The notes under the pieces were generated by a model. It saw only the letters and a list, made by a program, of their open reading frames with translations. It searched no databases and had not been told where the DNA came from. Positions 1,643 to 32,000 of a DNA stretch of 32,000 bases are shown piece by piece. The stretch is from Methanothermobacter sp. CaT2 (GTDB taxonomy: Archaea > Methanobacteriota > Methanobacteria > Methanobacteriales > Methanothermobacteraceae), in assembly GCF_000828575.1 (NCBI RefSeq), contig NZ_AP011952.1, positions 433,065 to 465,064 on the forward strand, read 5' to 3'. Numbering within the stretch: the stretch's first letter is position 1; each line of letters begins with the position of its first letter. The translations under genes and the position numbers were made by a program.

Positions 1643-2503
1643 CTAGATGCACCCGAACTGTTTCCTGAGTTCCGTTAGAACACGCCTCAGGAGTTCACTT
1701 GTGAGGGACCACTCCCCTCCACTGAGCTCCACAAGGCCCCTCAACTCGATTTTCTCAAGTTCCTCAGCCTCCACATCCCTCTGAGGTATTGGGGCATCAG
1801 TTAGATCCTCAAGGATTCTTTTCTCACCCATACTCAGCTGTGATAGTTCAGCAATCCATGGAAATGCGATCTGCTGGAACTTGGCCCTGAAGTTCTCCTC
1901 CAGCAGCAGCGGGCCATATATGATCCCATCTGAGAGGACGTTCAGGAAGCTGTCAATGAAGAGGGGCAGTCCCTCAGTGAGTCCATGTATGTACTTCATG
2001 CCTGCGGCCGTGGCCCTGAATGTGGGTGCCTTCCTCTGGATGTAGTCCTCTGTTTCTCTCTCTGTGAGGGGTGGTACGCTGACGACTGCCACGCCCGGTA
2101 TCTCCTCCTCAAGTTCCTGCAGGAAGCGCCTGCTGTACCTCATGGAGACGGCGCACCTCATGTCGTACATGTGATTCATCTTGAAGGCCTCCCTGAAGGC
2201 TGATACCTCCGGTGGCATGGAATCTATGAGTATATTCCAGTCAACTGTCCTTGCCATTACCATTATTCTCCTGAAGTCGGGTATCCCCTCATGGGCCTCC
2301 CTTATATCGGTGCACCTCATATCGATAAGGGTTGTTTTGCTGGGGTTTTCCTCGTGGAGTTTCCTAAAAATAGCTGTTTTTCCGGACCCCATCCTTCCTG
2401 TTACAATAACGAATCCAGGATCATTGAGGCCCTCTCTGATCCTTCTAAGTTCCTTTGCCCTTCCAATAAACACTTCAGTCCTGTTTAATGGAATTATGGG
2501 CAT
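1643..2503 (-). CDS. Small P-loop NTPase (archaeal-ATPase / STAND-like) with a C-terminal winged-helix-like segment
   Basis: Walker A in VIVTGRMGSGKTAIFRKL. Also VPPLTERETEDYI and GLTEGLPLFI motifs like those of archaeal ATPase/STAND NTPases. Lies 19 bp downstream of the CARF-wHTH gene on the same strand. Confidence 0.55.
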   Translation of the reverse strand: MPIIPLNRTEVFIGRAKELRRIREGLNDPGFVIVTGRMGSGKTAIFRKLHEENPSKTTLIDMRCTDIREAHEGIPDFRRIMVMARTVDWNILIDSMPPEVSAFREAFKMNHMYDMRCAVSMRYSRRFLQELEEEIPGVAVVSVPPLTERETEDYIQRKAPTFRATAAGMKYIHGLTEGLPLFIDSFLNVLSDGIIYGPLLLEENFRAKFQQIAFPWIAELSQLSMGEKRILEDLTDAPIPQRDVEAEELEKIELRGLVELSGGEWSLTSELLRRVLTELRKQFGCI

Positions 2504-2522
2504 GATGACACTTATTCATGTT

Positions 2523-3116
2523 TTAGAGCACTGCAAGTTCACCTGCAGAGGTTATCTCAAGCTTTTCCCGGTCAATGAACCCCATGTCACGGAGTTCCCT
2601 TATGTGGTTGTAGGTCATGCCCCTGCTTATACCTATCTTGACTGCAAGGTTTTTAACGGATTTTTCGCCGGCTTTGAGCTCCTCAAGGACCTGTTTCTTT
2701 GTCTTGGATATGCCGAAGCTCAGTATCGGGAGGTCTATCAGTTCATTGTCCTCCTCGGTCACATAGACTATGCGCTGGACGTCATGGTTCCTTGCGTAGC
2801 AGCCAAAGAGTGCTCCGAGTGCCTGGGTCTTCCTGCCGCCGCTTATGTTAACAACCACGCGCCTTCCATGGGCCCTTTCCTCGTCTATGATCTCAACCAT
2901 ATCCCTTGCAATGCTCACAACATCGTAGAGGCTCGTCTCAAAGGTTGTTATCTCCACTAAGTTACCGAGTGTGTCCCTGAGCACCTGTTCCACCTGTTCC
3001 TTTTCCCGTGGAGCCTTGTCCTCCTTGAGTAGAACCACCTTTCGCGGTGAGAACTGTGTTATGCAGAACATCACGGGTTCAATGGAGTATATCGTGGATA
3101 TCAGTGTGGTATCCAT
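2523..3116 (-). CDS. Csa3-like CARF + winged-HTH DNA-binding protein (CRISPR-locus-related DNA-binding protein family)
   Basis: N-terminal Rossmann-like region with the loop [20 protein letters not shown]-terminal w[33 protein letters not shown]. The ~197-200 aa size fits that family. The ORF track starts at GTG 3125, but the GGAGGG at 3128-3133 is only 2 nt from it, so ATG 3116 is preferred. Confidence 0.55.
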
Positions 3117-3382
3117 TATTATCACATCCCTCCAGTTTTCCTATCCCAAATTTTTGTTCACGGAAAACAATTCATTACAGTTAAAGGTATATTCTCTGAT
3201 TATTCTATATATAATTTTCCTACCTTGATTTTACATTCATAAAAACCGCTTTCTTCTATTAAATATCGGAGCATTTTTCAGAAATAAATTTAAAATTACA
3301 TGGAACCATCGTGTCTATCTTGAATTGTTTCATTCATTTCTGGAGATGCCGGGATTTTTAATGATCATGACATCACATCTGG

Positions 3383-3490
3383 GGATGGTATACTGAACTT
3401 AAGCGGGCTGGTATGTTAATCCTGATGAAAAAACTCCACAGTCAAGGATGGTATAATGAAGTTAACGAAGCTGATATCTTATCCATGAGG
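3383..3490. repeat. Two imperfect ~45-bp direct repeats with a 63-bp period in the AT-rich intergenic region
   Basis: Copy 1 (3383-3428) is ggatggtatactgaacttaagcgggctggtatgttaatcctgatga. Copy 2 (3446-3490) is ggatggtataatgaagttaacgaagctgatatcttatccatgagg. The first 10 nt are identical and roughly 70% match overall by eye. Confidence 0.6.
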
Positions 3491-3612
3491 TAAATTTCTC
3501 TGCTGTGTAAATAAAATAATGTTCTGTCAATAAAAAATGTTAAAATTTAAATATAATGACTCACTAATTAAATTTTAGATCCATTGATACATTTTATACT
3601 GTGGTGTTAGGT

Positions 3613-3939
3613 ATGAGATTTAAATATATATGTCACAGAAAACCAGAGCGAACATTTTCATTCAGGGGGCACTACTTTCCTGTGTGTTCAAGGTGTACCG
3701 GCATATACCTGGGGGCATTCACCTATTTCCTGTATGCATTCCTCATACCTGTGAAGTACACAGCAGCCACTGTGCTTCTGGCATTGCTTCTTGTGATCCC
3801 CACATTCATTGACGGATTCACCCAGCTGATGGGTTACAGAGAAAGCAACAATGTTCTGAGATTCTCAACTGGCCTGCCAGCAGGTATTGGACTGGCAGTG
3901 CTCACAAAGGTCCTCAAACATCTCATACTCCACCTCTGA
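3613..3939 (+). CDS. DUF2085-family small membrane protein
   Basis: [28 protein letters not shown] matches the DUF2085 Cys motif, followed by 3 hydrophobic helices. The ORF track starts at GTG 3601; ATG 3613 is preferred because TATA-like sequences sit at ~3553-3560. Confidence 0.6.
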
Positions 3940-4816: not shown

Positions 4817-5514
4817 GTGTTGAAAACTTGCTCGGAATGTGGATCAGAAAACAGGGATGGTGCAGCATTCTGTTCAAAATGTGGATCAGAGCTTCCCCAT
4901 GAAGACGGGATTAAAGGATGGTGGAAAAGGCAGAACAGATCCTCAAAGTTTCTTATCATCACACCCTTTGCCATTCTGGTCCTGATTCTACTGTTAGGTG
5001 CATTTACAGAGCCGTCCGGTTACAGCGATGTTAATTATGATGATGCAACAGTCTATGATAACGATGCAGCTGACGTTTCAGGCGCATCCAGCACAAAAAC
5101 ATTTGGGGAAGCGGAATCTCGTTCAGCTATCCAGACACATGGGAAATCTACATACCGGATGAGAGTAGTGATGATAACGTTGTTTCCCTCAAGTCATATG
5201 AGCAGGGCATGGTTTCAATTCTTTCCGTATATAAGAGGCCAGCCACCGTGGACCTTGAGACCGAGCGCGATACGTGTCTTGGAGCCATCTATGAAAATGG
5301 GGATGATGTAACCTATGTTAAGAAGACCACTGTGGACGGTAACAGCGCCTACATCATAGGATCCTCATACTACTATCAGGGTGATGAAGGTGAACAGGAG
5401 TACGTGGTATTCATTGAAGGGGACTATGCCTATGATATCCTCTTCACAACCGATGACCTGTCACTTATACAGGATGACATAGATACCATAATATACAGTT
5501 TCAGGGTTGATTGA
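4817..5514 (+). pseudogene. Zinc-ribbon / TM / extracellular-domain protein interrupted by a frameshift at an A5 tract (5095-5099)
   Basis: The first frame (4817 onward) gives CSECGSENRDGAAFCSKCGSEL plus a TM helix, then turns into implausible R/W/M-rich sequence. The frame in phase with nt 5074 is open from 5074. It reads ...ISFSYPDTWEIYIPDESSDDNVVSLKSYEQGMVSILSVYKRP... through stop 5514. Adding one A to the A5 run joins the two parts into one 232-aa protein. Confidence 0.65.
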
Positions 5515-20099: not shown

Positions 20100-22613
20100 T
20101 CAGCCGGCCTTTTCTATGATGGATGTCCCGTCAGACTTTTCAACCCTGTAGATATGGTCTGCAAGGTTTTCAAGTTCCTCCTCATGGGATACCAGGATTA
20201 TCTGTCTGGATTCAAGTTCATCGAAGATGTCCCTGAGCTTGTAGAGCTGCTCCTTGCTGAATCCATCGGTGGGTTCGTCCAGTATAAGTATGTCCGACCT
20301 CACATCGGTGAGACGCTGGACCACCATGTTCAGTGCAAGCCTGTATGCAAGGGCTATGCTGGTCCTTTCACCACCACTGAGGTATTCAAGGTTCTGTTCA
20401 TAGCCATCCTGCTCAACGATGGGTGTGAAGTCCTCATCGATCCTCACGGATTTACCGGGGTCATCCACCAGGACCCTGAACCATTTCTGGAATCTCTCAT
20501 TGAACTCATGGTTTATCTGTGCCATCACGTGGGTCTCAATGTCAGCGAGGGCCGGGATGAAGTACTCCTCGAGCCAGGCCACATAGGTCCGCAGCTGAAG
20601 GGAACGTTTTCGGAGTTCCCTCTTTTTATCAATTTCAGACCTTAGGGTCTCAATCTGTCTCTCCTTTTCCTCGATCTTTCCTTCCAGTGCCCCTCTTCTA
20701 TCTCTCCTCTCGTCACGGAGTCTCTCCTTTTCCCTGATAGTTCGGGTGAGTCCATGTATACTGGCCTCAACATCTTCCCTGTTTCTGAGTACCTCCTCAT
20801 TCTCCTTTATTTTAGCTTTCTTTTCAGCGATCTTATTTTCATTTTCATCGATTTTATTGAGGTTATCTCTGTATTCCCTGCTGGTCTCGGGGTTGAGTTC
20901 ACTGATCCTGGTCCTGAGGTGATCCATCCTATCCTCTGTTGCTGCAAGTCTGCCAGAGCATTCTGACTCACGCTCACGCAGGGATTTCAGTTCATTCTCC
21001 ACCATGTTGAATTCGGATTCAGCGTCCTTCAGTTCCCCGATTATCCTCTCAGTCCCTGCAATCTCTTCCTCTATCTTCTGGATCCTTTCCCTGGTTTTAT
21101 CAAGACCTTCACGCTTTCTACGACACTCCTCAATCCTTTTCTCAAGGTCCTCCATGAGCAGCCTCATTTCATCCTGGGCCCTTTTATACTCCGCTATACG
21201 TTTCAGGAGTTCATTTTTATCCGAGATTTCATTTCTGAGCTCCGCTATCCTTGATTCAACTGACATCTTTCTTTCGAGGGCCCTGCTGAGTTTATCATCT
21301 ATGTAGTCCGGGTCAACTTCCTGGTCACAGGTGGGACATACACCCATCTTTCCGATGGATTCATAGTCCTCTATCTTTCCTTGTATCCCACCGAGTTCCT
21401 GCTGGAGATCTGACACCTCAACCTCAAGCCTCCTGATGCCTGCTTCAACTTCATCCTCCCTGTATCCTGGATCCTCAATGGACTTTATGGCCTCTATCTT
21501 TGATTTTATCCCGCCAGTATAATCCTCAAGCCCGGATATCTCATCCTCCAGATCCTTCCCTGTCTTAAGGAGATTCTCGAGTTCGCTGGTAAGATTTCTG
21601 TACTGAATCGAAGCCTCCCTGAACCTCCGAGAGTCCTCCATGAGGGATTCCCTCTTCAGCTCAAGGTCACTGATCCTTTCTCTCAGGGAATTCAGTTCCT
21701 CCTGAAGCTTTTCCCCGATATCACTGCATTTCTGAAGTTCATCAAGGGATCTCTGATATTCAACCTCTATAACCCTGTTTCTTTCCATGAGTCTCTCTGA
21801 GGATGACATGAGGGTTTCTATCTCATTTTTAAGGGATTCTATCTCCTTCTCTGCACTATCAATCCTGTTTTTCTCTCTCTGAAGAACTTCCATCTCTGAT
21901 TTAAGTTTGCCTATCTCCACCTCGATTCCGTCAATATCACTGTCAAGCTGCTTCTTCTCCACCTCTAGTTTCTCCTTCTCCCCTAGAAGTCCTTCAAGTT
22001 CCTTCTCCTTATCCTCAAGATCATAGGACCTGTCTTCAAGGCTTTCTGATTCCCTCTTTATTCTCCTGGAAACAAGCCTTGCGTTATCAGCCGCCCTGCT
22101 GTACTTTTCAAGGTCAAAGGCCTTCCTGAGCCTCTCAAGACGGTCATTCGTGGGGGCCTCGATTATGCTCTTCATCTGCTCCTGTGGTGTGAAGACAGCA
22201 TAACGGTATATCCTGCTCCTGGCCCTTGGATTGAGGGGTTCCCTGTAACCTAGGATCTCAAGTACCTCGGCCTTCAGTTCCTTTGCAGAGAGTTTCCTGA
22301 CCCCCCGGGGTGTTCTGATGTAGAGCTCGCCCTGCTGAACCCCTGATGATCCCCTTTTGAGTTCCCTGTAAACCGTGTACTCATCGCCATCAACAGTGAA
22401 GGTGAGCTTGACTGAACCTGAATTTGATGTGGCCCTCAGGAGGCTGTCACCCCTCTGATCACCCAGACCGAAGAGGGCGAATTCTATTGCAAGGAGCAGG
22501 GTGGTCTTACCTGACCCTATATCACCCTCAAAGAGGGTCACCCCATCATCAAACTCAACCCTTCCCGAGTCATAGCTCCTTATGTTCTTAAGTTCAAGTG
22601 AATTGATGATCAA
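20100..22613 (-). CDS. rad50: Rad50 DNA double-strand-break repair ATPase
   Basis: Walker [10 protein letters not shown]. Long Glu/Lys/Leu coiled coils with a central CPTC zinc hook (21327-21338). Signature [17 protein letters not shown] and Walker B ILILDEPT. 4-nt overlap with mre11. Confidence 0.9.
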
Positions 22614-23872
22614 GTATCATCACCCCCCAGATCCAGGCCCAGGACATCCTCGGCATCCTCGGTGATCCGCCTCTCATATTCGTTCCTGTTCTCACCGGGG
22701 GCCTTCTCATTCTCAAGTCTCCTCAGGAGTTCTACTGCAATGGAATCACCCCCATCAATGAGGCTCCTGTTTTTGATGTCAAGGCCTGCAAGTTTCTCCC
22801 TGAAGATCCTCCTCTCCAGTCTGGGCACATCACTCTCCACCACCCTGACCTTCTGGATCTCGCGGGTGCTGAGGCCGTACCTGTTTATCTGGACAACACG
22901 GGCCCCCATGGATTCAAGTCTTTCCCTTATACTCGCCGAATCTATGTCCGATGTCCTTCCTGAGCTGAGCTCGCCCCGGATCTTGAGCATCACAACCTTT
23001 CCGGTAACATCATGACCTGATATCTCCCGCCCTATCTGGTGGTATGCGTCCTGTGAGTTCTTACCTGTGACATCACATTCAATGTAATCGAATTCTGCGG
23101 GGCTTATCTCCCTGAATTCAGTTTCCCTGACCTTATCAGTGAATTCAACGAGATAGTACCCCCTTTTCTCGCCCCTGGCGTTCTCCTCGAGGTCACCGGC
23201 GTATGAACCAAAGAGTGTGCCAGGGTACACGATGGGACCGTAGCCCTCCTCAATATAACATCCCTTACGGTGTACGTGGCCACCTGCATAGTACTCGAAG
23301 CCCCTGGGGAAGAGGTTCAGGTCCACCGATTCCATATCTGCAAGGTCAGCAGGTTTGAACTGGGTTATGGCGCTGTGGAAGAGGAATATCCTGAATCCCT
23401 CTTCGGCCTCCAGGGCCTCCCTGTCAAGCCTCATGAAGTAGTCGACCTCAAGGGTCCTTGATCTGCCTGACAGTCCTGTGATCTTTGCACCTGTCTTCTC
23501 GTCCACCGTGAACTCAAGTCCAAGCTTCTTACCGGGGATGGGGCGCACGACCTTATCTATCACCCCTGCACTTTCAAGGATGTCTATCATGGACGTGCTG
23601 GATGGGCTGTAGTCATGGCTCCCGTAATTGACGTATATGGGGACCCCTGCCTCCCTGACCCTCCTGAGTTCAAGGGTGGCCCTCTTTACGGTCTCCATGT
23701 TGGGTATGTTGGAGTGGAAGAGGTCCCCTGCTATTATCATGAAGTCCACGTCATTCTGGAGTGCATCGTCCAGGGCCATCCTGAAGGCCTCGAATTCAAG
23801 TTCCCTGAGGTCAGGCTGTTTCTGGGCCCCCAGGTGGCAGTCTGAGAGGTGTGCGAATCTGTACATGCTCAC
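22610..23872 (-). CDS. mre11: Mre11 nuclease
   Basis: Calcineurin-like phosphoesterase motifs [18 protein letters not shown] and GGHVH, plus operon position next to rad50. Confidence 0.9.
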
Positions 23873-23874
23873 AC

Positions 23875-25407
23875 CTACCCGATAAAGTCAATCTTCTCAT
23901 CTTCAGTATCCTCTGATTCCAGTCCAGCTGATTCAATGAACTCCTCAAAGAGGGGTATCTTCACAGGGACTGCGAACTTTGTGAATATGCTGCTAACTAT
24001 GGCTTCACCCTTATCAAGGCTTGCTATGGTCCTGTTATCATCTGATAGGTCCTGTGAGGCACTCCCTATTATCTCGGCCCTCTCCTGGGCCATCTCATTT
24101 CCCAGGATTATCTTGGTGTTCATGTTGGCAAGGACGGTCCTGGGTATCAGGCTGACGAGCTGGGTTATTGCAATGAGGCCTATGTTAAATTTACGTCCCT
24201 CCCTGGCTATTGTGCTGTAGATGTTGTTTCCCTGTCTCTCAATGACCTCCTTTCCGAGGACGCGGGGGGCCTCCTCTATGACTATCCCTATGACCGGTTT
24301 TCGTCTGAGTTCCCCTGTGGCCTTGTAGTGCTGGTACCTCCTGAAGATCTCGGCTGAGATGACGCTTCCAACCAGGAGCTCCGCCTCTCCCATGAGCCTT
24401 GAGGTGTCCACCACAACGATCTTTCCATCCTCAAGGCTGGCCGCGATGTCCTTTATGGTTGAATCGCCTCCACGGTCCCTGAAGACTCCTCCACGTGACT
24501 TTATGTTGCCCTCATTATCCAGGTATACACCGAGGGTGACGTCGAAGATCCTCCGGAGCACGTTGAGTGTCACCGGCTGTACACCGGGAAGTTCCTCCCC
24601 TTCCACGATCTTCATGATCCATTCATCCCCGAATTCGTTGTGGTACCTTGCAATTGCCTGTTCCTGTGCCTGTGTGAATGGGATTATGCCCTCAAAGTGT
24701 TCGGGGCGGAGTGATCTGAGGTTTATGGTGAGGGTGTTCCCGCCCACAGGTGCATCAGGGGAGTAGTAGATCACATTATCTGAGGGGTGCCTCCCGAGGC
24801 CGGCCTCGTTCCTCCCGTAGTACTCATCGTGTGGGTCCAGGACTAGAATGCCCACCCTGTCCATCTCTGCGAGGCTCCAGAGCATCACCTTCACAAGGTT
24901 ACTCTTACCCCTCCCTGTGGTTGCAGGTATGAGGATGTGGTGGGTTATGGCGTCAACTGCATCGACGTAGACCGGTGTATCCAGGACCTTTGACCCGCTC
25001 CTCACGTGTCCCAGGAAGACCGGGTTGCCGGGCCTCTCCAGGAAGTCAAGGTCACCCTCCCGGATCCTCCTCACCTCCCTGAAGAATCTGGGGAGGCGTT
25101 TGGGTATCATTGGCTGGCCATCCCGCACATGGAGTATGGGGCGGGCCTCTGCAATGATGTAGTTCCTCAGCTCAGGTTCGAGGAACTCCACATCCCCGCT
25201 GTACCCCTCAAGGTTGAACCCCGAGGCCAGCTCCCTCATGCCCTGGGGTATCTGGGACCTGTATTTGAGGTCCTTGACCTGGAGTATTGTGTAGCCGTCA
25301 CCCTCTGCAACCAGAAGGTCGCCGAGTTCTATTGGTTCACCTGCTTTCTGCCTTATGAGTACCGCGGCTGTTTCGCCGCCTATTATCTGCCCTGCAGTTT
25401 CCATCAA
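23875..25407 (-). CDS. herA: HerA hexameric DNA helicase/translocase
   Basis: Walker [15 protein letters not shown], Walker [11 protein letters not shown], ~500 aa, located between nurA and mre11. Confidence 0.85.
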
Positions 25408-26468
25408 TCCTCACCTGCATACCTGTTCAGTTCATCATGGTAGTTGAGGGCATCCACCTCATCCCTTATGCCCTCAAGGACCTCCCGGTCCCTGACCTGT
25501 GAGAGGAGCCTCCTCCTGTATATCTCCACCTCATCACCTGAGACCCTGGCCCTCATATCCACATCAACCAGACCGTAGGGGTAACCCGGGAAGCATGCAT
25601 CCCTGGCGTTCTCTGAGAGGGCTGATGCCACTACCTGTGCATCATCCCTTCCGCACTCTCCAAGGATGTCCATCCTGAATATCCGCCCTGCGGGGTTCAG
25701 CTTAACCGCCGTGAGGGTTGTTGCCCTGTCTGTCCTCACGGCTATGGGGTGGTAGCACCAGCCCCCCTCCATGTCACAGTCTGCGGCGAGCCTCCCTATG
25801 GCTGCAAGGAGTGACATTGAGGTGGTCGTGTAGAGGGTGCATGTCTTTGAGAGTCCGGCAATATGGATATCCCCTGACTCCTCCCAGAGTTTTCTTATGT
25901 AACTGTTCTCCTTCTCAAAGGATGCCTGCAGTGATCCGTCCCTGACCAGTATATCGCCATCCTGGAGTTCATCCAGCGCCCTCCGTGCCATGCTCCACTC
26001 TGCGAATCGCCTGGGAAGGCCCTTGAGGGTTGACTCATCAAACAGCTCTGCATCGCCAAGTTCCAGGTGAAGATCCTCCTCATCAGGCAGGAATTCCCTG
26101 TAATCCTCCATGATGGGGTGGATCTGGAATGTGCACATTTCATTCCCCGGGTGGATCCTCATGACCGATAGGAACTCAACCACCGGTGGTATCTCTGGCT
26201 GGATCCTCCTGGTCCCCATGAAGAGGCCCAGTGCAACCCTGTTGAGCTGGACCGATATGGTTGGCCCCTCCAGTATGGGGCTGTTGCCGCCGTCTATGAA
26301 GGCCATGCGCCTCTCTTCTCCTCCTTTGATGGACAGGAAATTATCCCTGCTGAATTCATGCACCCTGTATCTTGCTGACCTGAAGTATGGCCTTCCGATA
26401 TCTGACCTCACGGTAGCCTGGAGGGTCTCTGCAATCCTATCAAAAATGTCCAATAAAAAATCCCCCAT
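25404..26468 (-). CDS. nurA: NurA 5'-3' nuclease
   Basis: 354 aa, with MAFIDGGNS matching the NurA catalytic Asp motif. 4-nt overlap with herA. First gene of the nurA-herA-mre11-rad50 operon. Confidence 0.7.
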
Positions 26469-28456: not shown

Positions 28457-31174
28457 TTATCTTCTGACCTTTTTCTTAAGATCAATTCCCAGCTGTTCAA
28501 AGGTTTCAAGTATCCTCTCATATTTTGTGTCGTCCATCTCCCCATCCCCTGCCACTATCCTTATCTCTGCCACTGCATCAACGTCACTGAAGTCCTCGCT
28601 GATGGTCCTCTTGATCCTGATGATATTTGACATGTTTTCAAGGGCGGTGGTGAATTCCAGTTCAATCCATTTAATGTGCCCATTCTCATCTTCCACTAGC
28701 TCATCTTCCACTAGCTGCAGTACCTCACCCTCTGTGAAGTCCGGCATATCCTTCCCATCAACCCTTAGCTTACCCTTCTGTATACCCTCATCTATGACCT
28801 CTCTGAGTTTCTCCTTAACGATTTCAGGTTCACACCCCATACCCCTGTACTTCTCCGTATATTCTCTCAGTATCTCAATCGTTGCCATTTTCATCCGGGC
28901 CCGTTTTTCAAGTTCACCAACACCTATATCTATGGCATCAGGGGGGCACTCCTCACAGAGTTTTGGATTAACTATTATTTCGGGCGGCTTCAATGAGACA
29001 CTGCAATCCTCACCGATATGTCTGCACTTTGGGTCGCCTGGGTCGCCTTCCAGTACGCCGAGCCCAAAGAGCCTCCTCTTCACACCCTTCCTTATTGCTT
29101 CCTCCAGTACACTGGGACTCATTATCCTCATGGCACCGGGTGTGGTGTGGAAGCTCCTGAGTATCCTCTCTGTCTCAATATAGTCTTCCTGAAGGTATTT
29201 CCTCTCGATTATCACAGGATCCAGGGATTCAAGGAGTTTATCCTCCTCAATGAGCCTGCTTTTTATCTCATAGTCAACCTTCACATCTGCACCGTAGCTT
29301 GCCATCCCAAGGTCTATCCTTTCAAGTCCTGAACGTGAGGGTACAAATACCATCCTGTAAAGGTTCCTTATACTCTCCCTGTCCTCAGCTGAGACTGACT
29401 TTATCTTCTCCCTCACCTCCCTTTTCTGTTCATCTGTAAGGGAGAGTTGCCTGTCTGATTCAACAGCCATCCAGGCAAGTTTTGTCTTTATGTGTTCAAC
29501 AAGCTGGTACCTGTGTGTATCATCCGCCTTGAGGAATATCAGGGTATTCTTGTAGACCCTGGGCTTTTCGCCCTTAAACTCAAGGAAACCAGTACAGTCA
29601 TCGGCGTCCTCAAGTACTATGAGCTTGAGTTTCATGTCATCAGGGACATCGGAGGCGGAAGATGGCCAGATGTAGACACTGAAAATCTTCTTACCTGTTA
29701 TCTCGCCGAGAAGGCGCCTCTCCTCATCCCTGACATCCTCATCCCTTATGTTCTCCTTCTTCCTGAGGACTATGGCGTTGAGGTTGGCCTCAGCAGAGAA
29801 GTAGTAGAGGTCCACCTGCTTGTGTATGTAGAATAGCCTCTCAATCATCATGTTGAGGGCCCCGTCTATGATGGACATGGGGATCTCAGACTCCAGGCAG
29901 GCCATCTTTATATCCCTTATGGTTGCACCGTCCCTTACCCCTCCCCCTGAGAATGAGTACAGGAATATTGATCTCGCTATCCTTGTGCCTATCATGTAGG
30001 GCTCGTACCCCCTGAGTTCCCTGTCAATGATCCTGGCACCTGCATCGGGGGATGTTATATCGGCGGCTATGATGCTATCAAAATTGTTACCTGTGAACCT
30101 CAGGAACTCCCTTTTGAGGTTACCTGACTCCAGTGGAAAGTCTGATAGCCTTATAACTGGTGTGCTGGATGATATGAGCCGGTTCACCACCATGGCAAGT
30201 AGTCTCAGCACACCCCTTGTCCTCTGGAAGTTTGGGAACGAACCCCATCTCTCATAGAGGACGTCTATAACCTCTGGCTGGAAGGGGTAGCTCTTCCTGA
30301 ATACCTCACGATAGTCGGCTGCGTTCATACCCTCAGGGAGGATGCCCTCAGATTCTGCCTTTTCAGTGAACTCCTCTATAACATCAATGGCCGCTGATTC
30401 ATCCACCCTCTTAAACAGCCTCTTCCTTATGACAGAGTAGATCTCGTCGTCCTCGACGGGTGTGAAGATCTTCTCTGTCCTCCCCAGAACCTTTGTGAGC
30501 TGATGGAAGAGTTTCTCTGCGGCTTCATCATAGTGTTCAAGGGAACTTGATGGGAGTGTCACCACCAGTGAAACTCTCTCGAGGGCTGATGCTGCCTGGC
30601 TTAGCTCCTGCATGAATGCCAGGAGCTGGCCTGCAAGTGTGGACTCCCCAACAGTCACACCACTTGCCTTCACCGCGTACTCGAGGAGTTCATCCATGAG
30701 TATCAGCACCGGCTGCTTCTCTCGGAGGAGCCCCATGATCTTATCCATACCCGGGGAGGTCATCCCTGAGAATTCCCTTACCTCCCCACGGAGCTGCCTC
30801 TCCATTTCAGCCCAGAGTGTTGTTTCACTGGCGTCCAGGGCGTCGCCTGAGAGCACAACTCTGGAAGCCCCTATATCACCTGCCCTGTGGTAGAGGGATA
30901 TGAGGGTATGGGTTTTACCCCCACCGAAGGGTGTCTGGAGCTGTATCACAGGGTCGCCGCCCCTGCCCTCGAGTCTGTCACCAACGATATCCATTATGTT
31001 CCTGAGTCCACGGGTCATGTAGGTTTTCCTGAAGAAGACATCAGGGTCCTGGTACTCTGCTGGTGCCTCCCCCTTGTGGACACTCCACAGGTTGGCTGCG
31101 AAGACGTCCAGTGAGAGCCTTTCCCCCATTATGTCCTCATGTGGCTCAGCAATGTTTACAAATGGCCTCATCAT
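28457..31174 (-). CDS. DUF499-family P-loop ATPase (COG1483-like), 905 aa
   Basis: The N-terminal region ...FFRKTYMTRGL...IQLQTPFGGGKTHTLISLYH (Walker A at 30908-30934) and VLILMDELLEY (Walker B-like) match my memory of DUF499 proteins. RBS GGAGGAGG upstream. Lies 13 bp downstream of the DUF1156-type gene. Confidence 0.65.
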   Translation of the reverse strand: MMRPFVNIAEPHEDIMGERLSLDVFAANLWSVHKGEAPAEYQDPDVFFRKTYMTRGLRNIMDIVGDRLEGRGGDPVIQLQTPFGGGKTHTLISLYHRAGDIGASRVVLSGDALDASETTLWAEMERQLRGEVREFSGMTSPGMDKIMGLLREKQPVLILMDELLEYAVKASGVTVGESTLAGQLLAFMQELSQAASALERVSLVVTLPSSSLEHYDEAAEKLFHQLTKVLGRTEKIFTPVEDDEIYSVIRKRLFKRVDESAAIDVIEEFTEKAESEGILPEGMNAADYREVFRKSYPFQPEVIDVLYERWGSFPNFQRTRGVLRLLAMVVNRLISSSTPVIRLSDFPLESGNLKREFLRFTGNNFDSIIAADITSPDAGARIIDRELRGYEPYMIGTRIARSIFLYSFSGGGVRDGATIRDIKMACLESEIPMSIIDGALNMMIERLFYIHKQVDLYYFSAEANLNAIVLRKKENIRDEDVRDEERRLLGEITGKKIFSVYIWPSSASDVPDDMKLKLIVLEDADDCTGFLEFKGEKPRVYKNTLIFLKADDTHRYQLVEHIKTKLAWMAVESDRQLSLTDEQKREVREKIKSVSAEDRESIRNLYRMVFVPSRSGLERIDLGMASYGADVKVDYEIKSRLIEEDKLLESLDPVIIERKYLQEDYIETERILRSFHTTPGAMRIMSPSVLEEAIRKGVKRRLFGLGVLEGDPGDPKCRHIGEDCSVSLKPPEIIVNPKLCEECPPDAIDIGVGELEKRARMKMATIEILREYTEKYRGMGCEPEIVKEKLREVIDEGIQKGKLRVDGKDMPDFTEGEVLQLVEDELVEDENGHIKWIELEFTTALENMSNIIRIKRTISEDFSDVDAVAEIRIVAGDGEMDDTKYERILETFEQLGIDLKKKVRR

Positions 31175-31187
31175 AACCTCCTCCAGT

Positions 31188-32000
31188 TCATTTATAATCC
31201 TTCAGTGTTTTCTGTCTTGTTTTCTCCTTGAGGCTCTTCATCATGGTCTCCCTGTTCACAATTAAACCCTCAAGCCACTGCTTTTCCCTGCAGTTTGGCA
31301 GGAACTCTATTATTGCCTGGGCGACACGGTAGAAGCTTTCACTTGTACCGTAACCTGTCTCTAGGAGAAGTTTCTCAAGTTCTTCCTTTCTGCCCTCACT
31401 CCATAACCTGGCTGCAAGGTGAAGGGCGTCTATGAGTTCTGTGGTGTCATGGTCCTCACCCCTTTTATCAGGTCCTAGGACTGTGACCTTACCCCTCTGT
31501 ATCCTTATGAAGCCTGCCCGGCTGGTGTTGAGGTCTATGCCAAGGCTACCAGCCAGTTTCCTTGCCTCATCGAATTCCACTCTGGAGTTCTCGAAGTTCC
31601 ACCTGTAGAAGAGGTAGAACCTTGTGAGGGGTGATAGTTCATCTGCAAACCCATTATCCAGGATCCTCCTTATGGCGAAGTCGGCCGCGACACTCCTTAT
31701 ATCATCCAGGAGTCTGGAGCCCCTGACCTCCTCGCCATTGTATTTGAGGATCTCACTGTACTTCCCTATAACCTCCAGGCCGGCGCCTATGGCAGCTATG
31801 AAGAAGTCAGGGCCGCTTATACCCTCCTCCCAGAGGTACTCCAGCTTCTCACCGAGGACCTCCTTCAGTTCGACCTGGACCTCCTCATAGTAGCCCGTTT
31901 TCTTCTCAAAGTCCGGTTTACGCGCCACGATGTAAATGGATGATGCAAGGGCTGCTGAAGATTGGGCTCTAAGCCTATGTTTTTGTTCGGTGAATATGGG
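31188..32000 (-). CDS. DUF1156-type DNA methyltransferase, C-terminal 270 aa (gene continues beyond the window)
   Basis: The frame has no stop from 31928 up to nt 32000 (...ALASSIYIVARKPDFEKK...). ASSIYIVARK and TRFYLFYRWNFENSRVEFDEARKLAGSLGIDL resemble the conserved C-terminal region of DUF1156/COG1743 methylases. The pairing with DUF499 supports the call. Confidence 0.55.
   Translation of the reverse strand, partial: PIFTEQKHRLRAQSSAALASSIYIVARKPDFEKKTGYYEEVQVELKEVLGEKLEYLWEEGISGPDFFIAAIGAGLEVIGKYSEILKYNGEEVRGSRLLDDIRSVAADFAIRRILDNGFADELSPLTRFYLFYRWNFENSRVEFDEARKLAGSLGIDLNTSRAGFIRIQRGKVTVLGPDKRGEDHDTTELIDALHLAARLWSEGRKEELEKLLLETGYGTSESFYRVAQAIIEFLPNCREKQWLEGLIVNRETMMKSLKEKTRQKTLKDYK

Follow-up and report, generated by a model that had tools for sequence, protein, structure and literature searches.

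Csa3Sso from S. solfataricus binds the cyclic oligoadenylate (cOA) cyclic tetra-adenylate (cA4), does not have ring-nuclease activity and regulates CRISPR as well as DNA-repair genes; in CARF domains, the ligand-binding motif 2 follows β4 and reads small-small-G-x-R/K (PMC8844856). Every one of the CARF families has members outside of CRISPR loci (PMC4012209), and the route by which cOA acts on transcription beyond type III CRISPR-Cas is poorly understood outside the Sulfolobales. Here, we describe a csa3 gene from Methanothermobacter sp. CaT2 that resides far from cas genes and is followed by a gene for a short AAA+ ATPase. Both are located on the minus strand of a stretch of 32,000 nucleotides (contig NZ_AP011952.1, positions 433,065 to 465,064), which is referred to as the window in the following and in whose numbering all coordinates are given unless another locus is named. 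An original prediction made from the letters of this DNA had seen the pair as an orphan Csa3-like regulator next to a sensor-less STAND-like ATPase. The reading we prefer, and to which we assign about even chances, is that of an operon for a trans-acting Csa3, probably responsive to cA4, with the ATPase as a lineage-specific, co-expressed accessory.

The open reading frame (ORF) listing and the sequence agree on two genes running in the same direction with 19 nucleotides between them, csa3 upstream (2523–3116, 197 aa) and the ATPase gene downstream (1643–2503, 286 aa). For csa3, an alternative GTG start at 3125 would give 2523–3125 and a protein of 200 aa. The ATG at 3116 is most likely the true start, because the orthologues are uniformly 197 aa long and the Shine-Dalgarno-like element GTGAT precedes this ATG in nearly all lineages. 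An archaeal promoter would not fit into the spacer (2504–2522, minus strand), which is also free of T-runs, so that one bicistronic transcript probably covers both genes. Neither of them is a chance ORF, since dN/dS (the ratio of nonsynonymous to synonymous substitution rates) is low in both. Arrangement and spacing are thus as originally noted, and the motifs quoted at the time are all present: the loop in the upstream protein and GRMGSGKT (residues 36–43), TTLIDMR (57–63) and GLPLF (178–182) in the downstream one. Likewise in line with that account, no CRISPR array was detected in the 32-kb window, and no cas gene is found among the window ORFs scanned with Pfam and, for some of them, with PADLOC.

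As had been proposed, and as is already stated in public annotation, the upstream gene encodes a true Csa3 of the CARF-winged helix-turn-helix (wHTH) type. Its CARF domain spans residues 1 to ~130 and its winged helix residues ~135–197. TIGR01884 matches with 192 bits at a cut-off of 60.2 and aligns residues 2–198 with the complete model (1–202 of 202), while PADLOC returns CARF3 (PDLC01849, 1e-97) and CasR (8e-57). Matches in Pfam are to HFX_2341_N, Cas_APE2256 and wHTH domains, among them HTH_24 (26.0, threshold 21.9) and HTH_5 (25.9, threshold 22) over residues 140–185. An AlphaFold2 model calculated with 14 orthologues as input shows a Rossmann-like N-terminal domain, with alternating strands and helices over residues 3–128, and a C-terminal wHTH. 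When this model was submitted to Foldseek, the S. solfataricus Csa3Sso structures with and without cA4 (6wxq, 2wte, 6w11) came first, with E-values down to 7.6e-8, followed by Can2, Cam1, Csm6 and CARF ring nucleases. It was the fold search alone that reached Csa3Sso; the sequence profile of the Csa3 clade did not find it among PDB sequences.

Across 14 orthologues, the loop VN(I/V)SGGRK.QALG and the segment YVTEED show little or no variation, and the recognition helix is invariant. The SGGRK motif and E121/E122 match the phosphate-binding motif 2 for cA4 and Glu122 of Csa3Sso, a correspondence read by eye from strand positions and not from a residue-level superposition. The ligand is most likely a cyclic oligoadenylate, probably cA4.

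The window Csa3 shares 98% of its residues with the M. thermautotrophicus protein, and its close relatives number in the hundreds. When GTDB species were scanned with one genome each, 80 csa3 loci with 54–97% identity were obtained, distributed over Methanobacterium, Methanothermobacter and some Methanobrevibacter-like lineages. Within Methanothermobacter, csa3 evolves with a dN/dS of 0.006–0.03, i.e. under extreme purifying selection. Neither the Csa3 profile nor the ATPase profile found a relative on viral contigs, so that nothing points to a mobile element or a virus as the source of the genes. One csa3 locus offers a direct connection to CRISPR: in locus L083 (390–6594), a homologue that is 61% identical to the window protein and has the same pocket and recognition-helix motifs is flanked on one side by a CRISPR array (at least 12 repeats of 37 nt, GTTACAATCCTTGTTTTAGTGGAAAAGCCTTTGCAAC) and on the other by a type III-A operon encoding Cas10/Csm1 (499 bits; HD and GGDD present), Csm2 and Csm3. 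The respective genome contains two csa3 copies, of which the CRISPR-adjacent one is the more divergent. The type III-D Csm6 of M. thermautotrophicus is activated by A4>P (10.1101/153262), and in M. thermautotrophicus SYN1 csa3 is up-regulated together with cas genes (PMC12743542). In combination, the L083 locus, the A4>P-activated Csm6 and the co-induction in strain SYN1 favor a cOA-responsive regulator acting in trans. The original prediction had listed such a unit, working with a type III locus elsewhere in the genome, as its second option, and it is this option that gains support.

The short ATPase is tightly coupled to csa3 wherever it occurs. In all seven contexts found (the window and loci L001, L003, L010, L100, L101 and L102) its gene follows csa3 in the same orientation at a distance of 19–49 nt. 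All of these belong to the M. thermautotrophicus clade, and they include a case in which an ATPase of 45% identity is encoded beside a Csa3 of 94% identity. Conservation of the two genes as neighbors across the Methanobacteriales, which the original prediction had suggested checking, is not borne out, as the short ATPase is present at one of the 80 csa3 loci of GTDB species; the csa3 loci of M. tenebrarum, M. lacus and M. alkalithermotolerans are without it. The nearest long relatives, P0133 and P0134, which are the best distant matches in a search of 1.84 billion proteins, occur in two other lineages, likewise downstream of csa3, at 0.3–2.1 kb. Close copies of P0134 (85% identical) are arranged convergently 0.3–1.1 kb downstream of csa3 in L012 and L013, and the gene for P0133 in L103 is co-directional with csa3, is located one gene further and precedes a gene for a UvrD-PD-(D/E)XK helicase-nuclease. 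The gene in between (L103 4432–5772, plus strand) specifies a protein of 446 aa without a match in Pfam or PADLOC, which may be part of a csa3-ATPase-UvrD gene string; P0133 itself comprises 478 aa, and the contig is an AT-rich (23% GC) one from a member of the Methanobacteriaceae. Our literature searches did not retrieve a description of a csa3-ATPase operon. The operon is a clade-restricted comparative-genomic observation, in which both proteins are of known families and the pairing is undescribed.

Pfam, NCBIfam and PADLOC return only P-loop matches below threshold for the short ATPase (AAA_16, ATPase_2, nSTAND models, Avs4 and mad8). PF01637 scores 19.3 bits at a gathering threshold of 33.2 and covers no more than the N-terminal 44 residues; P0132, a family member with 45% identity, reaches 32.9 on the same model. 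When 1.84 billion representative proteins were searched exhaustively with phmmer, only two clusters matched over the full length, beyond which lie proteins of 370–480 aa that match residues ~140–240 of the short ATPase. P0134 and P0136 from among these long relatives attain 56–58 bits on PF01637 and thus exceed the threshold, the others being near or below it, and proteins of the P0134/P0136 type have Walker A, a Walker B reading IIIDEF, GxP in the lid and a wHTH at the C-terminus. The short family and the long relatives align from end to end in hhalign (probability 99.7%, E 9.4e-26, 284 columns), and a profile built jointly from both finds the solved PF01637 structures 2fna (1.8e-14) and 2qen (3.3e-11). 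The short ATPase is a new, reduced subfamily of the known archaeal PF01637 family and not a novel STAND protein. Its AlphaFold2 model (pLDDT 83, pTM 0.82) consists of a complete five-strand nucleotide-binding domain (NBD, residues 1–145), a helical lid (146–225) and a winged helix (226–286). With this model, Foldseek returned Avs4, 2qen (TMq 0.70), CED-4, 2fna, Orc1 and plant NLRs (NRC and ZAR1-type resistosomes). Of the idea of a sensor-less STAND-like ATPase, the core of NBD, GxP lid and winged helix without a sensor arm stands; the family affiliation does not. Nor is the missing sensor unusual, as had been assumed, since the solved PF01637 members 2fna and 2qen are sensor-less themselves.

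Within the NBD, Walker A is followed by β2 (TTLID, 57–61), β3 (NILID, 90–94) and sensor-1 (Ser124). The original prediction saw no clear hhhhD/E sequence; the stretch it named as closest to a Walker B, TTLIDMR, corresponds to strand β2, and the best candidate is WNILID94. Asp94 is invariant in the short ATPases, the next residue being S, G or H, such that the catalytic Glu of Walker B is absent. The FGGR sequence of the long relatives, in which the Gly-Arg before β5 is a putative Arg finger, has no counterpart either. The AAA+ core has thus retained Walker A, Asp94 and sensor-1 and is not catalytically complete. Compared to its long relatives, the protein is shorter by ~100 residues, and what is missing is, according to the model, most likely a helical insert between β2 and β3. 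A MAFFT alignment that placed the deletion over Walker B and sensor-1 was discarded, as the AlphaFold2 model shows the complete five-strand core instead. The hhalign alignment gives yet a third placement of the deletion and positions the Walker B strand differently from the AlphaFold2 model; the DE pair is absent in all three. With the Walker B Glu, the putative Arg finger and the insert lost, an ATP-binding switch or a DNA-binding co-factor is likelier than a motor, and the protein may well bind ATP with poor or no hydrolysis. It is the lid (residues 178–219) and not the catalytic core that forms the most conserved segment, and purifying selection (dN/dS 0.14–0.25) extends over all three domains. 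A closer kinship of the ATPase wHTH with that of Csa3 was considered and rejected: similarity is generic only (hhalign probability 24%) and BLASTP found nothing.

If Csa3 indeed acts in trans with the ATPase as its accessory, it would bind a cyclic oligoadenylate, probably cA4, the source of which would be a type III CRISPR-Cas system encoded at another chromosomal site. Ligand-bound Csa3 would then alter transcription from target promoters, probably including the one in its own leader, which would amount to autoregulation. By virtue of co-transcription, the short ATPase would follow the expression level set by Csa3 and serve as an ATP-binding switch or DNA-binding co-factor.

The csa3 leader and promoter (3117–3220, minus strand) are conserved in the clade, as seen when the upstream regions of the window, L001, L003 and L010 are aligned. 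On the minus strand, the region contains a TATA-like element, AAAATTATATATA (3206–3218), ~95 nt before the csa3 ATG, an inverted repeat with the arms GTTTTCC (3162–3168) and GGAAAAC (3135–3141) separated by N20, and two Shine-Dalgarno-like elements, GGAGG (3129–3133) and GTGAT (3121–3125). The equivalent position in the leaders of L012, L014 and L017 is taken by an inverted repeat of another sequence, with some changes affecting both arms. The inverted repeat could be an operator or a hairpin in the 5′-untranslated region. A conserved RNA hairpin was not substantiated (RNAalifold -0.37 kcal/mol; z-scores of single-sequence folds between -0.8 and -1.5, not significant), and an Rfam scan of the entire window gave no match. 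A search for a conserved operator by 8-mer enrichment over 83 upstream regions returned AT-rich, TATA-like words only. Farther upstream, the intergenic region between csa3 and a DUF2085 gene contains a direct repeat of 49 nt with 63-nt spacing (3383–3494). Its unit, TTAACTTCATTATACC, is moderately conserved and present as a single copy in L001, L003 and L010, pointing at a duplication specific to the lineage of the window.

A number of observations weigh against a cOA-responsive Csa3 with the ATPase as its accessory. The Csa3-specific adenine-binding motif 1 for cA4, Phi-G-F-(N/D)-x-zeta-F after β1, is not recognizable in the window protein. The β1-α1 loop is kept in all orthologues, with the aromatic Tyr10 as the sole feature in common with motif 1, and the ligand could therefore be a different one, which renders its identity less certain. 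Proximity to cas genes or CRISPR arrays is confined to L083 among ~85 csa3 loci, and this, just as the housekeeping-level constraint on csa3, also fits a role independent of CRISPR. Most csa3 loci are devoid of the ATPase gene and hence Csa3 does not need the ATPase. For the long ATPases, none of ten metagenomic loci, several of them on short contigs, contains csa3, which means that the long family as a whole is not csa3-linked. Finally, the ATPase variant P0003 (a cluster of eight members; L101 1236–2096) has the Walker A sequence GMRGSRKT, in which a conserved Gly is replaced by Arg, and its ORF is intact and adjoins a csa3 of 99.5% identity, a hint that the protein may not depend on nucleotide binding.

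One competing explanation is that the two genes have no functional link. A PF01637 gene would have inserted into the variable and partly defence-island-like 3′ flank of csa3, where it was trimmed, became vertically inherited and is possibly decaying. This flank is indeed highly variable and, besides immediate neighbors that differ between loci, features genes for DUF6282, ADP-ribosylglycohydrolase, a GajB-like UvrD-PD-(D/E)XK protein, a Cas4-like nuclease, an ABC-ATPase, an SNF2 protein resembling ZorD and, recognized by eye only, an MNT-like nucleotidyltransferase. P0134 resembles the defence candidate PDC-S27 (2.4e-15), the ATPase is ~10–40 times less constrained than csa3, and its catalytic residues are gone, with even Walker A mutated in P0003. 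A decaying insertion is difficult to reconcile with dN/dS values that testify to sustained purifying selection in every domain and with ORFs that stay intact from 97% down to 45% identity. The close co-directional spacing has been kept as well, and related ATPases recur by csa3 in differing chromosomal contexts. We consider it unlikely that the genes are unconnected.

Quite unlikely, in our view, is also a Csa3 that serves the Methanobacteriaceae as a core regulator sensing an endogenous nucleotide or metabolite in place of CRISPR-made cOA, for which the CRISPR name would be historical. Such a regulator would be in accordance with the extreme constraint on csa3 (dN/dS ~0.01) at 55–98% identity across genera, with the ~84 of ~85 loci that are not CRISPR-adjacent, with the unrecognizable motif 1, with the existence of non-CRISPR members in every CARF family (PMC4012209) and with recurrent genes divergent from csa3 (30 loci with a response regulator, 11 with DUF2085). 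It is opposed by the intact general CARF motif 2 and Glu122 equivalent, by the homologue with identical pocket motifs in the type III-A locus L083 and by the induction of csa3 along with cas genes (PMC12743542).

The idea favored first in the original prediction, a physical two-protein sensor, is likewise doubtful. A Csa3 dimer would bind the ATPase, and the CARF ligand would gate ATP-dependent oligomerization or DNA binding, which would make the pair a CARF-AAA+-HTH regulator of the RtcR kind divided over two polypeptides; fusions of these domains are known, RtcR and a kinase-AAA+-CARF-wHTH family being examples (PMC4012209). The strict adjacency in seven of seven contexts, the tight co-directional spacing at ATPase identities as low as 45% and the long ATPases near csa3 in two further lineages would all suit it, and the conserved lid is suggestive of an interaction surface. 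Yet Csa3 remains 99.5% identical while the ATPase falls to 75–87%, although interacting partners are expected to co-change; moreover, the partner is missing beside most csa3 orthologues, is encoded convergently in L012 and L013 and is separated from csa3 by another gene in L103. A bolder and decidedly speculative version would have the Csa3 of Methanobacteriaceae anchor the variable 3′ flank and, in the M. thermautotrophicus clade, recruit as its obligate partner an AAA+/winged-helix protein that no longer hydrolyzes ATP, resulting in a split transcription module that is gated by cOA or an endogenous nucleotide and switched by ATP, in other words a two-polypeptide archaeal analogue of RtcR tying type III CRISPR signaling to chromosomal expression.

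Associations of csa3 with DUF2085 and the response regulator are more widespread than the pairing described here: DUF2085 is encoded divergently from csa3 in the window (3601–3939, plus strand) and in several Methanobacterium lineages, and the response regulators in the same position are CheY-like or of the Response_reg + MetOD1 type. Fusions of a UvrD-type helicase with a PD-(D/E)XK nuclease (~900–1070 aa, GajB/RTasHel-like) recur on the 3′ side of csa3, at distances of 0.5–8.5 kb, in at least 12 loci from different genera (L103/L104, L011, L014, L015, L017, L001, L040, L061, L079, L085, L086, L089). As Sulfolobus Csa3a reportedly regulates DNA-repair genes, this synteny may deserve study.

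The window also encodes a pseudomurein-binding repeat protein and Mur-type ligases as well as a complete Rad50-Mre11-HerA-NurA cluster (20100–26468, minus strand; SMC-like AAA_23, Metallophos, HerA/DUF87 and NurA). The latter yields spurious-looking PADLOC matches (LmuB, mad3, mad8, HerA) that are not to be taken for defence systems. A DUF499 protein of 905 aa (28457–31174, minus strand) matches HmaC in PADLOC (3.2e-124, 414 bits), the AAA+ ATPase of the Hma helicase-methylase-ATPase defence system. The remainder of a possible Hma system would fall past the right end of the window, and the 246-aa ORF adjoining the DUF499 gene upstream (31188–31928, minus strand) has no family match. A gene for a Zn-ribbon and PsbP_2-like protein (4817–5514, plus strand) is split into two frames here (4820–5092 in frame 2 and 5107–5511 in frame 1) and exists as a single ORF of 227–234 aa in L001, L003 and L102; the split is a frameshift and indicates either a pseudogene or a sequencing error.

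Conserved, constrained and located away from cas genes, the Csa3 of Methanobacteriaceae would lend itself well as a model for how cOA controls transcription in trans in methanogens, and the ATPase paired with it in a genetically tractable clade could turn out to be a hitherto unknown accessory of CARF regulators. Should the ligand not be a cyclic oligoadenylate, the protein would provide an example of a CARF sensor recruited to core physiology.

In comparison with described systems, the window Csa3 shares its size, the CARF + wHTH architecture, motif 2 and the Glu122 equivalent with the Csa3Sso type (Saccharolobus/Sulfolobus Csa3, Csa3a and Csa3b; 2WTE, 6W11, 6WXQ). Structural alignments between the two arrive at only ~13–14% identity, and motif 1 is recognizable only in the Csa3Sso type. 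Genes for the latter reside in a type I-A locus, whereas the window csa3 is far from cas genes and, in its clade, is followed by the ATPase gene. RtcR offers a possible functional analogy to the pair, as it unites a CARF sensor, an AAA+ domain and a DNA-binding HTH for the control of transcription (PMC4012209). It is, however, a single bacterial polypeptide with a sigma-54-interacting AAA+ domain of the NtrC type, while the pair consists of two archaeal proteins, each with a wHTH, and an AAA+ domain of a different clade that appears to be impaired for hydrolysis.

The ATPase resembles PF01637 proteins (SSO1545, 2FNA, and PABY2304, 2QEN; ~350 aa) in its succession of NBD, lid and C-terminal winged helix without sensor repeats, and has the N-terminal MPI(I/L)PL...GR..E sequence, Walker A, GxP and the C-terminal G(C/Y)-x tail in common with the long relatives from that family. 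It differs from PF01637 members by the missing insert, the reduction of the Walker B DE to a single Asp, the loss of the Gly-Arg and its strict coupling to csa3. With STAND NTPases (Avs4, CED-4/Apaf-1 and the NB-ARC of plant NLRs) it shares the NBD-HD-WHD order and a GLPL-type GxP motif. In contrast to these, it has neither sensor repeats nor an effector domain as judged by Pfam, its 286 aa being taken up entirely by NBD, lid and winged helix. nSTAND1, nSTAND3, nSTAND6, NB-ARC and NACHT score below gathering thresholds and cover the P-loop only, and the Avs4 model attains 24 bits at a cut-off of 1500. The nearer relatives of the short ATPase are thus the Orc/Cdc6-like PF01637 proteins.

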